From Candidatus Gastranaerophilales bacterium (GTDB lineage Bacteria; Cyanobacteriota; Vampirovibrionia; Gastranaerophilales; Gastranaerophilaceae): DNA of 64,000 nt. The position numbers and the translations under genes are program-made. The stretch is from contig CAKMWI010000008.1 in NCBI GenBank assembly GCA_928722015.1, forward strand, positions 212,837 to 276,836, written 5' to 3'. This document shows, piece by piece, positions 37,880-41,355 of this stretch; the first letter of the stretch is position 1; every line of letters starts with the position of its first letter. The notes beneath the pieces are model-generated. The model saw only the letters and a list, made by a program, of their open reading frames with translations, was not told the origin of the DNA and did no database searches.

Positions 37880-38542
37880 CTATACTCTTTCATATTCATG
37901 TTTTAAGTTTGATATTGCTTCTTTATAGTTGCCATTCTTTTTAAATAGCGTTGCAGTTCCAAGAACATAACCTTTAACGCCAAGGTTTGACCATTTTTCT
38001 ATTCTTTCTGGTGTTACTGCTCCATCTAGAAAAATTTCAAAGTTATATTCATCTTTTAGTTTAAGTAATTTTTCTATTTTTTTATCTACATACGTTAAAT
38101 ATTGTCTGCCTGCGTGTCCAGGATTTACGCCAAGGACTAAGACTCTGTCTACCGTGTTTAGGAGTTCTTCTATACTTGGAATTGATGTACCAGGATTTAT
38201 TGCTATTCCTGCTTTTGCTCCGGCCTTATGAATTTTTTCAATTGTTGTTGCAGGATCGGTATCGACTTCCGGATGAATATAAATGATATCAATGCCTAAT
38301 TTAAATAGTATATCAAGGTAGTTGTATGGCTTTTTTACCATTAAATGTGCATCTACTTTTTTATTTGTTGAATTTTTAATAAATGCCATGTCTTGATAAC
38401 CCATGCCAAAGTTATCAACAAAGCTTCCATCCATTATATCTATGTGAAAGGAGTCTATGCCTGCACTTTCAAGTTCTCTTACTTCTTTCTCAAGGTTTGC
38501 GTAATTTGCGCACATCATTGATGCAGAAAGCTCTATATTCAT
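37880..38542 (-). CDS. Ribulose-phosphate 3-epimerase family protein (RPE / allulose-6-phosphate 3-epimerase-like)
   Basis: SASMMCANYANLEKEVRELESAGIDSFHIDIMDGSFVDNFGMG aligns with the RPE SILSADFARLGEEV...HVDVMDGHFVPN motif. It has a (beta/alpha)8 pattern with the C-terminal LDGAV..E. 220 aa. Confidence 0.7.
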   Translation of the reverse strand: MNIELSASMMCANYANLEKEVRELESAGIDSFHIDIMDGSFVDNFGMGYQDMAFIKNSTNKKVDAHLMVKKPYNYLDILFKLGIDIIYIHPEVDTDPATTIEKIHKAGAKAGIAINPGTSIPSIEELLNTVDRVLVLGVNPGHAGRQYLTYVDKKIEKLLKLKDEYNFEIFLDGAVTPERIEKWSNLGVKGYVLGTATLFKKNGNYKEAISNLKHEYERV

Positions 38543-38543
38543 A

Positions 38544-39449
38544 TTATTTATCCTCCTTTATTACGGGTCTTGCGATGATAAATGTAGAATTATTTAATTT
38601 AATATATTCATTAGGTTCCAGAACAATGGTTATGCCTGTGTGAATATTTATTCCATCTATAGTTGTTTCTCCAGCTAGAACAGTGAGGCACTCAAGTGTT
38701 TCTGACATATTTTTATACTCGGAAACATTTTTATATAATCTGGTTGAGTAAAGTCTTTCTACAATTTCGTTATTATTATATTTCTGTTTTCTGGATTTTA
38801 ATTTAGGATTGATAGCTTTTAGTGCTTTTTCTATATGAAGTTCTCTTTTTTTACCTGCATCATCGACTCTGTTAAAATCAAAGAATCTGTATGTAAGATT
38901 ACAATTTTCTTCTATTTCATAAAAAAGTGCTCCGTGTGTAGCGGCATGAATTGTGCCTTGTTCAACAAATACGTAGTCTCCCTTTTCTATTGCCAGATGG
39001 TCAATGATATCTTCTTCAACTCTGTTTTGAACTATTTTTTCTTTGATTTCTTCTATAGTGTTAAGTTTGCAACCATTAAACAACCAGCCGTTTTCCGGTG
39101 GTTCTAAAAAGTACCAAGATTCATTTTTCCCAAATTTCCTTTTTTCAATTTCTTGGGCACATGCATCATCCGGATGTACTTGGATACTTAAATCCTCTTT
39201 TGGGTCAACGAGTGCTATTACAAATGGAAATTCTTCATATTTCCCCAGACCAAATCGGTCTTTATTTTGTTCAAAATATGTTTTAAATAGCGTATTCTTT
39301 AATTTTCCATTTAAAATTGTGCTTTCAAATTCTTTATTAGAGACTAAAGAATATAAATGTCCAAGTTTGTTATGTTTTTCCGGTGCAAAAGGAATTAATT
39401 TTTTGCCACCCCATATTGTTTCATGTGAAATAGGTTTGAGTATAAGCAT
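38544..39449 (-). CDS. Class I mannose-6-phosphate isomerase-like cupin (PMI type I family)
   Basis: KPISHETIWGGKKL...QVHPDDACAQ...ESWYFLE...GTIHAATHGALFYEIEENCNLTYRFFDF matches the type I PMI zinc-site and cupin motifs. 301 aa. Confidence 0.7.
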   Translation of the reverse strand: MLILKPISHETIWGGKKLIPFAPEKHNKLGHLYSLVSNKEFESTILNGKLKNTLFKTYFEQNKDRFGLGKYEEFPFVIALVDPKEDLSIQVHPDDACAQEIEKRKFGKNESWYFLEPPENGWLFNGCKLNTIEEIKEKIVQNRVEEDIIDHLAIEKGDYVFVEQGTIHAATHGALFYEIEENCNLTYRFFDFNRVDDAGKKRELHIEKALKAINPKLKSRKQKYNNNEIVERLYSTRLYKNVSEYKNMSETLECLTVLAGETTIDGINIHTGITIVLEPNEYIKLNNSTFIIARPVIKEDK

Positions 39450-39458
39450 TTTATCTCC

Positions 39459-39845
39459 CTATAATGTTTCATCTATTATTACTTCAAAATCCGCTAAACC
39501 TTTATTTCTTTCCGGGCTCACCGCATACGCGCATTTTAACCCTGAAGGTTTATTATCGTTAAAAAGAATTCTTTCACCCATAGGCATTTCGAATAGTATT
39601 TCGTTGTACCTAATGTTATTTTCTTTTAAAAATTGTTCAGTTTTACTGCGAGCTTCTTTTTCTCTGGCAGTCATTATAAGAATATAATCATTTTCAGGTA
39701 TTGATTGCAAAAATTCTTTTGCTCCAGGTAAAAATTTATCTTTTCCTTTTTTATATCCGTTGTGTTCTACCAGTGTTCCGTCAAAATCGAATATCCATGT
39801 CTTATTTAGTGCTGATAGTTTTAAAATATTCTCTTTTAAAAGCAT
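39459..39845 (-). CDS. Small HAD-superfamily phosphatase
   Basis: HAD motif I WIFDFDGTL. 128 aa. It overlaps the upstream gene end by 44 nt. Confidence 0.6.
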   Translation of the reverse strand: MLLKENILKLSALNKTWIFDFDGTLVEHNGYKKGKDKFLPGAKEFLQSIPENDYILIMTAREKEARSKTEQFLKENNIRYNEILFEMPMGERILFNDNKPSGLKCAYAVSPERNKGLADFEVIIDETL

Positions 39846-41355
39846 TGTTATCTCCTTCTATACATTCATTAAGCAGATATAATCCGTTATAGTATGCGAG
39901 GCACATAGAATCAAAATCTTCCCATGCATGACTTGCAAGAGAGAGCCAGATTATTGAGTGGATTATCTTTAGTTCGTCAATATTACATGCAGGAATTTTT
40001 GAAATAAAATAATCTGTTAGTTCTTCCCAGCCACCTGAATTAATTGTATAGTTGACTTCGGTGTTTGTAATACTAAGATTGAAATTTTTGATATTAAATT
40101 GGTCAAAATTTCCGTTTATTGAGTAGTATAGTTTTGCCCAGTCATACCGAATATCCCCAAGAACTTTTTGTGAACCGAAGTAGCCTCGTGCATCTATAAA
40201 GTATATTTTCCCATTTTTATCAATCATTGTATTTGTAAGTGTACAATCTCCATGAATTGGGCAATATACAGTGCTAAATAATCTGTTTTCTACTAAATTT
40301 CTTAAAAATGTTGAGTCTGTCATTATATTTTTGCAGTGTTTTCCATTAATGGTTATATAGTCATTATCAGAAAACGGTATTGCCTGTCTTATACTTTGTA
40401 TTCTTTTAATTGTTTTTGTATAATATTCTTCTTCTAAATCCCAATAATTTGCAGGTTTATTTTCATAGCCATGCATTTTATTTATTGATTTTATAAGATT
40501 ATCTATAACAGTTTTCTTTTCATTTAGAGAAAGTTCTGCATTAAATATATTTGTTCCGTCTATTTTACTCATTGTAAGAGGTTCCAGTGAATATATTTCC
40601 GGTATTGAATCAAAACCATATTCTCGCATTTGTTTGTACCAAACAACTTCTCTGTCGATAAGCTTTTGTCCTTCAGTTGTTAATCCTGTTTTTATTACTT
40701 TATCTGTTGTAAATTCCATTTTGTTGTATGGTCTGCATCTGTTTTTAGTTGAAGAAATTTTTTCTATAGCTTCAATTGTTCCTGTTTCTTTTGAATTTTT
40801 CATTGATAGAGGCGTTAGTGCAATTCCTGAATTTTTTAACCATTGTGTGAATGAGCCTTCAGCTGGAAAATCGGAAAATTTTGACTTGTTATTGAATATA
40901 TAGCAACCAGCTACTCCATATTCTGTTGATGCTATTTTTTCTAGTGTATTATTTTGAAAACTCCAACTGCATTTGAAATTTTCGGATATACCAATGTATG
41001 ATTTATTTTTATCCAAATTAGATATATCAAATTCCTGACTGAGTATTATATCTGACCAAATCAGCATAAATTGTTCATCATCTGCTATATATTTTAATGC
41101 TTCTTTAATTCCGCAGGCGTTTCCGGTTCCTGTTGCTTTAATGAGAATATATTTTGCGCAACAGAATGTTTGTAAGTATTTTTCCAGGACATTAAATTTA
41201 TAATCTCCGATTATTACAAATTCAGCCTGTGGATATTTTTTAAACATGTGGAAAATAATTGGTAAATTATTTACCGGAACGATACATTTTGGTTTGTTTT
41301 GAGTTAGATGTCCTAATCGGGTACCTTTACCTCCTGCCTGAATAATAATTTTCAT
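39802..41355 (-). CDS. Bifunctional sugar-phosphate nucleotidyltransferase (N-terminal) / APH-fold sugar or alcohol kinase (C-terminal)
   Basis: The N-terminus MKIIIQAGGKGTRLGHLTQNKPKCIVPV carries the GGxGTRL NTase motif. The C-terminus has ...YCPIHGDCTLTNTMIDKNGKIYFIDARG, the HGDxxxxN + D Brenner motif of the APH/choline-kinase family. This is a domain order analogous to FKP. Confidence 0.7.
   Translation of the reverse strand: MKIIIQAGGKGTRLGHLTQNKPKCIVPVNNLPIIFHMFKKYPQAEFVIIGDYKFNVLEKYLQTFCCAKYILIKATGTGNACGIKEALKYIADDEQFMLIWSDIILSQEFDISNLDKNKSYIGISENFKCSWSFQNNTLEKIASTEYGVAGCYIFNNKSKFSDFPAEGSFTQWLKNSGIALTPLSMKNSKETGTIEAIEKISSTKNRCRPYNKMEFTTDKVIKTGLTTEGQKLIDREVVWYKQMREYGFDSIPEIYSLEPLTMSKIDGTNIFNAELSLNEKKTVIDNLIKSINKMHGYENKPANYWDLEEEYYTKTIKRIQSIRQAIPFSDNDYITINGKHCKNIMTDSTFLRNLVENRLFSTVYCPIHGDCTLTNTMIDKNGKIYFIDARGYFGSQKVLGDIRYDWAKLYYSINGNFDQFNIKNFNLSITNTEVNYTINSGGWEELTDYFISKIPACNIDELKIIHSIIWLSLASHAWEDFDSMCLAYYNGLYLLNECIEGDNNAFKREYFKTISTK

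Follow-up and report, generated by a model that had tools for sequence, protein, structure and literature searches.

The closest described counterpart of the system reported here is the phage pathway to UDP-D-arabinofuranose. According to the account in PMC13326640, which cites He et al. (Nat Chem Biol 2026), an arabinose-5-P isomerase of E. coli phage HY126 provides the substrate of AfhE, which phosphorylates arabinofuranose-5-P to the 1,5-bisphosphate; AfhF, a Mg-dependent HAD phosphatase, converts arabinofuranose-1,5-bisphosphate to the 1-phosphate, and the N-terminal domain of AfhE then makes UDP-arabinofuranose. Homologues have been listed as RB69 gp55 / gp52:53 / gp51 and DLP3 gp83-81 (PMC13326640; PMC6024577), the AfhE homologues of RB69 and DLP3 were reported to match the folds of MurU, LicC, APH(2'') and glucosamine kinase (PMC13326640), and Serratia phage 92A1 was named as a phage with arabinosyl-5-hydroxycytosine (PMC13326640). 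On the cellular side, Thomas et al. 2018 pointed out that prokaryotes have diverged homologues of the RB69 protein, some of which, in Butyrivibrio, are fused to a GutQ-like domain (PMC6024577), and the discussion in PMC13326640 could only speculate that the phage route originated in a lipopolysaccharide (LPS) pathway. Here, we describe a four-gene cassette in a 64,000-nucleotide stretch of a Candidatus Gastranaerophilales genome (assembly GCA_928722015.1, contig CAKMWI010000008.1; hereafter the window, in which all coordinates are counted). The cassette appears to encode a cellular pathway of the AfhE/AfhF type that is widespread and in which an epimerase and an isomerase together take the place of the arabinose-5-P isomerase. 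Its four open reading frames (ORFs), called at 37880-41355, are as follows in the order of transcription:

39802..41355 (minus strand): nucleotidyltransferase-kinase fusion, 517 aa; N-terminal MurU-like sugar-1-P nucleotidyltransferase (about residues 1-200) and C-terminal APH-fold kinase (about residues 205-500)
39459..39845 (minus strand): minimal capless HAD phosphatase, 128 aa; predicted remover of the distal phosphate from a sugar bisphosphate
38544..39449 (minus strand): class I phosphomannose isomerase (PMI)-like cupin aldose-ketose isomerase, 301 aa
37880..38542 (minus strand): ketose-phosphate 3-epimerase of the ribulose-phosphate epimerase (RPE) family, 220 aa

The fusion and HAD genes overlap by 44 nt, and gaps of 9 nt and 1 nt separate the HAD from the PMI-like gene and the PMI-like from the RPE-like gene. 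The first-pass annotation of this DNA had reported four adjacent co-directional genes at this place. They are real, as shown by the ORF calls and by the occurrence of the same four genes side by side in 35 of 38 related loci. It had also named the proteins correctly, and Pfam/NCBIfam profile searches and motifs agree with all four domain assignments; its gene order followed the plus-strand coordinates, however, and the genes are read in reverse. The motifs that it had given as GGxGTRL and HGDxxxxN are present in the fusion as GGKGTRL and HGDCTLTN. Domain searches of the operon (33.6 to 47 kb) found no phosphohexomutase, as the annotation had claimed for the module. Its joining of the four genes into a single mutase-free nucleotide-sugar route likewise holds.

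The window fusion and phage AfhE are homologous over their full length (27-34% identity); a tblastn search of phage genomes gave matches in 363 records, and in 350 of these the match spans 80% or more of the query. In Serratia phage 92A1 (27.5% identity, E 8e-34), the homologous gene adjoins an annotated arabinose-5-P isomerase gene; RB69/JS98-like phages match at about E 1e-23. Synechococcus phage S-SRM01 (34% identity, E 4e-89) carries a triad of SIS, fusion and HAD genes; the HAD encoded after its AfhE-like gene shares 56% identity with that of the window. For the window fusion, we independently obtained the same fold matches that had been published for the proteins of RB69 and DLP3: MurU, LicC, APH(2'') and glucosamine kinase. 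From these homologies, we assign the fusion firmly, and the HAD more tentatively, as cellular members of an AfhE/AfhF-type pathway. As in the phages, a MurU-like nucleotidyltransferase is followed by an APH-fold kinase in one fusion, a minimal HAD gene follows it, an aldose-ketose isomerase would feed it, and the predicted logic is mutase-free, with phosphorylation at C1 and then removal of the distal phosphate. Unlike the phage pathway, the cassette has a PMI-type cupin and an RPE-type 3-epimerase in place of the SIS isomerase, its fusions form a separate monophyletic clade, and it lies in a chromosomal surface-glycan operon with no DNA hypermodification setting and no ThyA-like hydroxylase; its product is also probably not arabinose. 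Of separate note, the S-SRM01 triad (L046 4402-6814) lies among genes for GDP-mannose dehydratase, GDP-fucose synthase and a fucosyltransferase and not beside a ThyA-like cytosine hydroxylase gene, which suggests that it serves a glycan rather than DNA modification.

Within the fusion, the N-terminal domain matches PF00483 over residues 4-109 (E 5e-8) and holds the GGKGTRL loop at residues 8-14; in the C-terminal part, the HGDCTLTN catalytic loop lies inside a weak APH match, and the motif FIDARGYFG and a metal-binding Asp are also present. AlphaFold models are confident, with a predicted local distance difference test score of 91.5 for the whole fusion and 91.9 for the kinase domain. Foldseek gave MurU (4Y7V, TM-score 0.76) as the closest structural match of the nucleotidyltransferase domain, while a profile of the kinase domain found no match among PDB sequences at E <= 10. 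The family is large: more than 2,300 homologues were retrieved by the word-indexed search, and HMMER placed the window clade as a single branch of a superfamily of fusions of about 500 aa with 325 representatives at E <= 1e-30 and more than 9,000 at E <= 1e-3, the latter count including proteins that match through one of the two domains only. Many superfamily representatives are merely 25-45% identical to the window fusion. In some of them (P0063, P0083, P0151 and P0169), the nucleotidyltransferase, kinase and HAD are joined in a single chain, and in one (P0156) the fusion has a C-terminal KpsF/KdsD-like SIS domain. Melainabacterial fusions end in about 17 additional residues (CIEGDNNAFKREYFKTISTK; window 39802-39860, minus strand), a C-terminal tail that is absent from other lineages in the alignment. 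The region encoding this tail overlaps the start codon region of the HAD by 44 nt in another frame, and some lineages fuse both genes in frame.

The conservation of the cassette was examined in 35 genome loci and 3 contigs reached via the fusion (the main-clade loci), with about 8-10 kb of flanking DNA in which ORFs were called and clustered. The fusion and the HAD are present in 38/38 loci, and the PMI-like and RPE-like genes in 35 each. The four genes are side by side in 35 of the 38 loci, which come from about ten phyla, almost always in the same order, so that the check on gene-order conservation in relatives proposed with the first-pass annotation gave a positive answer. The nearest relatives are gut Gastranaerophilales/Melainabacteria metagenome-assembled genomes. 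Among the carriers are Melainabacteria, gut Alphaproteobacteria, Elusimicrobiota, Akkermansia, Mailhella, Oxalobacter, Sutterella, Dakarella, Muribaculaceae, and Eubacteriales/Lachnospiraceae, the last including Butyrivibrio sp. AE3004. Because the same four genes are linked across phyla, the RPE-like and PMI-like genes are not chance neighbours, and the notion that they are housekeeping rpe and manA genes that merely happen to be located here can be dismissed. The RPE-like genes of Dakarella (L029 7310-7984, 69% identical to that of the window) and Muribaculaceae (L034 10810-11502, 78%) are melainabacterial in type; the fusion genes in the same loci are less alike (51% and 63% identity to the window, respectively), and in Dakarella the RPE gene lies upstream of the fusion. 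These observations suggest that the cassette may be a mosaic exchanged between phyla.

The front end is what sets this clade apart. The divergent fusions that we examined all adjoin an SIS gene and a small HAD gene in polysaccharide clusters (L039, L043, L044 with two triads, L047, L048 and L049), and RPE and PMI are lacking from all such SIS-type relatives (L039, with the same protein in L040 and L041, L043, L044, L045, L046, L047, L048 and L049). By tblastn, no SIS gene was found in the window or in the 38 main-clade loci, and no RPE-like or PMI-like gene in any of 11 SIS-type loci, cellular or phage. The linkage is therefore exclusive: PMI and RPE in 35 main-clade loci versus 0/11 SIS-type loci, and SIS in 0 versus 11. 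In a neighbour-joining tree, the PMI/RPE-linked fusions form a single clade, and nine alignment positions are fixed differently between them and the SIS-linked fusions. Ser130 of the PMI/RPE clade, beside the invariant Cys129 of the nucleotidyltransferase domain, is Arg in all SIS-linked proteins; Thr374, adjoining the catalytic Asn375, is replaced by Ser, and His476 by Tyr. The cellular SIS triads, such as the Butyrivibrio "GutQ" fusions (PMC6024577) and those of L039, L043, L044, L047 and L048, resemble the cassette in their fusion family (35-46% identity), in their HAD (41-54%) and in a neighbourhood of glycosyltransferases, pyruvyl transferases and Wzm/Wzt. They differ in having a KpsF/KdsD-like SIS isomerase with neither RPE nor PMI, and in mostly lacking the GTx family described below.

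Two of the SIS-type loci have features of their own. L044 (1862-11444) has three fusion paralogues on one metagenomic contig (505, 914 and 502 aa), two of them with their own SIS and HAD; the 914-aa paralogue starts with about 417 extra residues that have no Pfam match. In L039 (300-9305), the genes immediately before the AfhE-like gene are those for ADP-heptose: an SIS_2 GmhA, a PfkB kinase, a cytidylyltransferase-like protein, an epimerase and two true GT9 proteins. Since these canonical heptose genes stand beside an AfhE-like gene, the heptose and AfhE-type kinase/phosphatase pathways occur together, and neither stands in for the other.

The HAD of the cassette has weak family matches only (BT0820, HAD-IIIA and HAD-IIIB; 18 bits for HAD-IIIA versus a cut-off of 44.6), and the HADs share across phyla the invariant pattern DFDGTLV.HNGYK ... 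TARE ... GERIL.ND.KPSGL, including DxDGT. The DGT.V.HNGY motif of this capless HAD is similar to that of GmhB. The PMI-like protein matches PF20511 (32 bits) and TIGR00218 (67.5 bits, under the manA equivalog cut-off of 116.2), and aligns nearly without indels over residues 3-213 to the B. subtilis PMI structure 1QWR (E 2.7e-35). Conservation analysis showed that its metal ligands and phosphate motif are kept (QVHPDD, GKNES, GTxHA and TYRxxDxxR), and that the N-terminal "GE.W" motif of PMI is GHLY in all cassette members.

The RPE-like protein is a clear PF00834 member (E 1e-48) that misses both the rpe equivalog (TIGR01163, 179 bits versus a cut-off of 212.6) and the alsE equivalog (NF007266, 168 bits versus 271); the sole curated model that it passes is the broad subfamily NF004076 (173 versus 165). 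Its phosphate loop after strand beta-8 reads G-TATL-F, compared with G-TSGL-F in AlsE and G-SAV-F in RPEs; in HMMER alignments, there is a one-residue gap opposite RPEs and none opposite AlsE 3CT7. In a MAFFT alignment, all cassette RPEs have a beta-8 loop longer than that of RPE, by one residue in the window type and by two in the alphaproteobacterial type, and all have the AlsE-like SxMC and PGxAG motifs. The extra beta-8 loop residue is said to lengthen the AlsE pocket for allulose-6-P and to set the preference between pentulose and hexulose (reportedly Chan et al., 2008). The RPE loop and the hexose-6-P isomerase spacing of the PMI-like protein together suggest that the substrate has a longer chain than a pentulose. 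The AlsE of allose/allulose catabolism is like the cassette enzyme in its RPE family membership, its SxMC and PGxAG motifs, its elongated beta-8 loop and the reaction that we propose, fructose-6-P to allulose-6-P; unlike AlsE, the cassette RPE falls under the equivalog cut-off, lacks part of the AlsE-clade markers and stands in a biosynthetic context.

Based on these findings, we propose a pathway for the cassette. The RPE-like enzyme would epimerise C3 of a central ketose phosphate, most likely converting fructose-6-P to D-allulose-6-P. The PMI-like cupin isomerase would then convert D-allulose-6-P to D-altrose-6-P, if it works with PMI stereochemistry at C2, or to D-allose-6-P, if it uses the opposite face. 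The APH-fold kinase domain would phosphorylate C1 to give a 1,omega-bisphosphate (1,6 for altrose), the reaction reported for AfhE on arabinofuranose-5-P, and the small HAD would take off the distal phosphate to leave the 1-phosphate, as reported for AfhF. The MurU-like N-terminal domain would make a nucleoside diphosphate (NDP)-sugar, probably a UDP-sugar; the NTP-loop residues of the fusion are common to the phage proteins, so a UDP-sugar is the natural guess. The GTx proteins would then move the sugar onto a lipid-linked surface glycan, of the LPS or lipooligosaccharide (LOS) type in this diderm, and the glycan would be pyruvylated and exported. The general scheme and the AfhE homology are firm, while the chain length and identity of the sugar are the weakest part: C6 altro or allo, C7 D-glycero-D-altro, or C5 arabino. 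Since the epimerase has a longer, AlsE-type phosphate loop, the product is probably a 3-epimerised hexose rather than arabinose, and NDP-D-altrose is our best guess. D-Altrose equals D-arabinose in its C2-C4 configuration, and its furanose form has the same ring as the AfhE substrate. Because the altrofuranose ring would equal that ring, little change would be needed in the kinase, the HAD and the nucleotidyltransferase. The simplest reading is that the ketose phosphate needed by the PMI-like enzyme would not be available from central metabolism. One known altrose was considered and rejected as the product. L-Altrose is the C5 epimer of D-galactose and is unreachable from a D-ketose-6-P by C3 epimerisation and aldose-ketose isomerisation; the altrose in the exopolysaccharide of Butyrivibrio fibrisolvens is the L form (PMC4392319).

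On balance, we lean modestly towards reading the cassette as the AfhE/AfhF nucleotide-sugar pathway in a cellular form that serves surface glycans and has another front end, and several points weigh against it or against the new sugar. The tree that separates the PMI/RPE clade is a neighbour-joining tree without support values, and SIS gave way to PMI/RPE just once in evolution, so that 35 versus 0 does not amount to 35 independent observations. The window HAD is 50-56% identical to most SIS-linked HADs (41-45% for L043 and L048), the window fusion is 35-46% identical to SIS-linked fusions, reaching 46% with one of them, and BLAST found no similarity between the window HAD and the 119-aa Straboviridae AfhF-type HAD of Serratia phage 92A1. 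The window RPE retains RPE-like residues at 2/4 published AlsE-clade marker positions, and the loop-length argument leans on what Chan et al. 2008 reportedly found. The step order rests on the secondary account of He et al. in PMC13326640, and Table 1 of that paper words dephosphorylation by the HAD before the kinase step. Given the high identity of HAD and fusion to the arabinose-type triads, the sugar could still be arabinose: the product would then be the same UDP-D-arabinofuranose as in phages and SIS-type bacteria, with the PMI-like protein as a non-orthologous isomerase from ribulose-5-P (Ru5P) to arabinose-5-P and the RPE-like protein supplying Ru5P from xylulose-5-P (Xu5P). This explanation is parsimonious, and the Ru5P reaction fits PMI stereochemistry at C2; both cassette types also have the same FrhB/pyruvyl-transferase neighbour, and the window RPE scores slightly higher against RPE than against AlsE models and structures. 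A mere supply enzyme, however, should be missing from some PMI-type clusters and turn up in some SIS-type ones, and Ru5P and Xu5P are central metabolites; the linkage of PMI and RPE is absolute (35/35 versus 0/11), which a pure supply role would not predict. Diderm carriers should moreover already possess KdsD, the beta-8 loop of the RPE is of AlsE length or longer, and the clade-specific substitutions of the fusion adjoin its catalytic motifs, so we consider arabinose unlikely.

Another possibility is a heptose version, in which sedoheptulose-7-P would undergo 3-epimerisation and isomerisation to D-glycero-D-altro-heptose-7-P, which would lead via the 1,7-bisphosphate to an NDP-heptose for GT9-like transferases. 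The first-pass annotation had rightly seen the analogy to the heptose route: the NDP-heptose pathway (GmhA, HddA or HldE, GmhB, HddC or HldE) also uses an isomerase, an anomeric kinase acting on an omega-phosphate, a HAD bisphosphate phosphatase and a nucleotidyltransferase, and this kinase-phosphatase logic is the hallmark of heptose activation (GmhA/HldE/GmhB). Many cassette RPEs, with a beta-8 loop two residues longer than that of RPE, the weak GT9 (heptosyltransferase) matches of GTx and the MsbA/LPS context would suit a heptose. The enzymes themselves are of other families, however: the cassette has a cupin in place of SIS_2, an APH fold in place of GHMP or PfkB (profile searches found no SIS_2, GHMP or PfkB domain in the cassette) and an extra 3-epimerase, and the HddC model reaches only 38 bits on the fusion against a cut-off of 300. 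With a window RPE loop of just one extra residue, the AlsE length, a PMI core spaced like a hexose-6-P isomerase, a GT9 homology of GTx that is not significant, and an AfhE system showing that the kinase-phosphatase logic is not specific to heptose, we regard this version as quite improbable. The order of the middle steps could also be reversed, as in the second route offered by the first-pass annotation and in the recycling of N-acetylmuramic acid by MupP/AmgK/MurU: the HAD would free the sugar, the APH-fold kinase would act on its anomeric position and the nucleotidyltransferase would activate it. To our knowledge, all previously characterised APH-fold sugar kinases (NahK, AmgK, maltokinase and MTR kinase) take unphosphorylated sugars. 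The MupP/AmgK/MurU route shares with the cassette a HAD phosphatase, an APH-fold anomeric kinase and a minimal nucleotidyltransferase, to which the nucleotidyltransferase of the fusion is most similar in structure, and one main-clade locus (L031) has fusion, HAD and GTx genes with no isomerase nearby. The muramic acid enzymes, by contrast, are not fused and work with no isomerase or epimerase, the MurU models give 32 bits on the fusion versus a cut-off of 250, and the cassette HAD is capless with the GmhB-like motif; the step order of the cassette is probably different. The dephosphorylate-first order keeps some probability because Table 1 of PMC13326640 words the steps in that way; we hold it to be improbable all the same. 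The third route offered by the first-pass annotation, activation of choline or another phospho-alcohol by a LicC/LicA-like fusion unrelated to the sugar-phosphate enzymes, draws on the presence of LicC among the nucleotidyltransferase matches (E 2.7e-6) and of a LicD gene in one Butyrivibrio locus. It was rejected, and we give it very little weight: the nucleotidyltransferase is nearer to MurU, RfbF and HddC than to LicC, in the kinase fold comparison LicA is only level with aminoglycoside kinases (13% identity) with no match at the sequence level, domain searches found neither LicB nor LicD in the window, and the fusion is strictly co-conserved with sugar-phosphate isomerases, is fused to an SIS domain in one relative and is homologous to an enzyme reported to act on arabinose-5-P. 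The bisphosphate route, which the same annotation had set out first, is favoured by the AfhE/AfhF precedent, while its description as an undescribed route is only half right, the core being known from phages and prokaryotic homologues having been noted in 2018 (PMC6024577).

The cassette lies in a same-strand run from about 46972 to 33636 of the window, which contains, in order, genes for a 2-keto-3-deoxy-6-phosphogluconate (KDPG) aldolase, a PfkB kinase, CsaB, an MsbA-type exporter, a 375-aa protein, the cassette, a 367-aa protein, a fusion of Fer4, FrhB and pyruvyl-transferase domains, and a membrane protein. The members of this run that bear on the use of the product are:

42488..44272 (minus strand): MsbA-type lipid A/glycolipid ABC exporter (TIGR02203, 529 bits); context, outside the precursor pathway
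41357..42484 (minus strand): GTx-1, 375 aa; probable GT-B glycosyltransferase using the product
36773..37876 (minus strand): GTx-2, 367 aa; distant GTx-1 paralogue (BLASTP E 0.001 across the ISLRSG motif)
34459..36789 (minus strand): fusion of Fer4, FrhB-like and polysaccharide pyruvyl transferase domains, 776 aa (Pfam matches)

GTx-1 has no Pfam or NCBIfam match at the default threshold, and GTx-2, likewise without a Pfam match, falls in the same cluster in an all-against-all comparison. The GTx family is present in 33/39 loci, where two copies or one doubled protein of about 760 aa are often encoded, and its members share across phyla an N-terminal xGD/xGE, a central PxAxS ... FW..L...L...GY.V..N and a C-terminal RSG. 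The first-pass annotation had called these flanking genes GT9-like, and the layout of the motifs does resemble GT9; PF01075 (GT9), however, scores 14 bits on GTx (E 0.03), below its cut-off of 22, with 5 of 20 members matching, and hhalign of GTx against the two genuine GT9 proteins of L039 was not significant (probability 0.1%), the aligned segment being the analogous donor-binding motif. A GTx profile found no match among PDB sequences. The GT9-like character should thus be taken as a lead and not as a finding; from its linkage to the cassette, GTx is likely the transferase for the cassette product and a candidate new family. The family of the 776-aa pyruvyl-transferase fusion is found in 14 main-clade loci; the SIS-type locus L044 also carries it (31% identity over 721 aa), and plain PS_pyruv_trans genes are present in L036-L039. 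It likely performs a later modification step on the same glycan. The protein contains two 4Fe-4S motifs, FrhB_FdhB N and C domains and the pyruvyl transferase, and we may speculate that its reductase-like half turns an enolpyruvyl/pyruvyl group into a carboxyethyl ether. The MsbA-type exporter is on the same strand, upstream of GTx-1, and adjoins the module in 11 loci. Elsewhere, the module is set in exopolysaccharide and capsular polysaccharide clusters in Firmicutes, and the SIS-type locus L048 in a Wzm/Wzt O-antigen-type cluster.

Some further features of the window deserve mention. The stretch has about 30% G+C. The CsaB of the run is a CsaB-type pyruvyl transferase (44400-45416, minus strand; TIGR03609, 259 bits), and a UDP-GlcNAc 2-epimerase is encoded at 23832-24965 (plus strand); in Firmicutes, CsaB and UDP-GlcNAc 2-epimerase are the usual pair for the pyruvylated N-acetylmannosamine polymers of the cell wall to which SLH-domain proteins are anchored. 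A gene for a CHASE2 sensor fused to an adenylate/guanylate cyclase domain (46988-49027, plus strand) lies in divergent orientation at the operon's upstream end. A 1270-aa ORF at 5968-9780 (minus strand) has no Pfam match at E <= 1e-5.

In the literature on anomeric kinases and on heptose or rare-sugar routes, we found no account of the four-gene cassette; the AfhE precedent was found through the literature on arabinose-5-P isomerase, and the claim of a wholly undescribed route has been overtaken by the phage work of 2025-26. The kinase, phosphatase and nucleotidyltransferase core is already described for phages, and the undescribed part is the PMI-like and RPE-like front end with the sugar that it would supply. 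A cellular counterpart of the core of phage DNA arabinosylation is now seen inside an LPS-type operon. Going further, we tentatively suggest, at rather less than an even chance, that the PMI/RPE clade makes a nucleotide sugar new to biology (a UDP- or NDP-D-altro-hexose, possibly furanose, or a heptose) that would be installed on the glycans of gut bacteria by a Pfam-less GT-B family, with phage DNA arabinosylation as an offshoot of this older cellular machinery. Cultured carriers exist (Butyrivibrio sp. AE3004, L036, and Dakarella massiliensis ND3, L029), and the enzymes concerned are four small soluble proteins. The simplest meaning of the exchange of the SIS isomerase for an epimerase and an isomerase is that common gut commensals bear another activated sugar on their surface, probably one not yet described. 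If the new-sugar reading is true, the carriers, including Akkermansia, Sutterella, Oxalobacter, Muribaculaceae, Lachnospiraceae and Melainabacteria, would display a new sugar.

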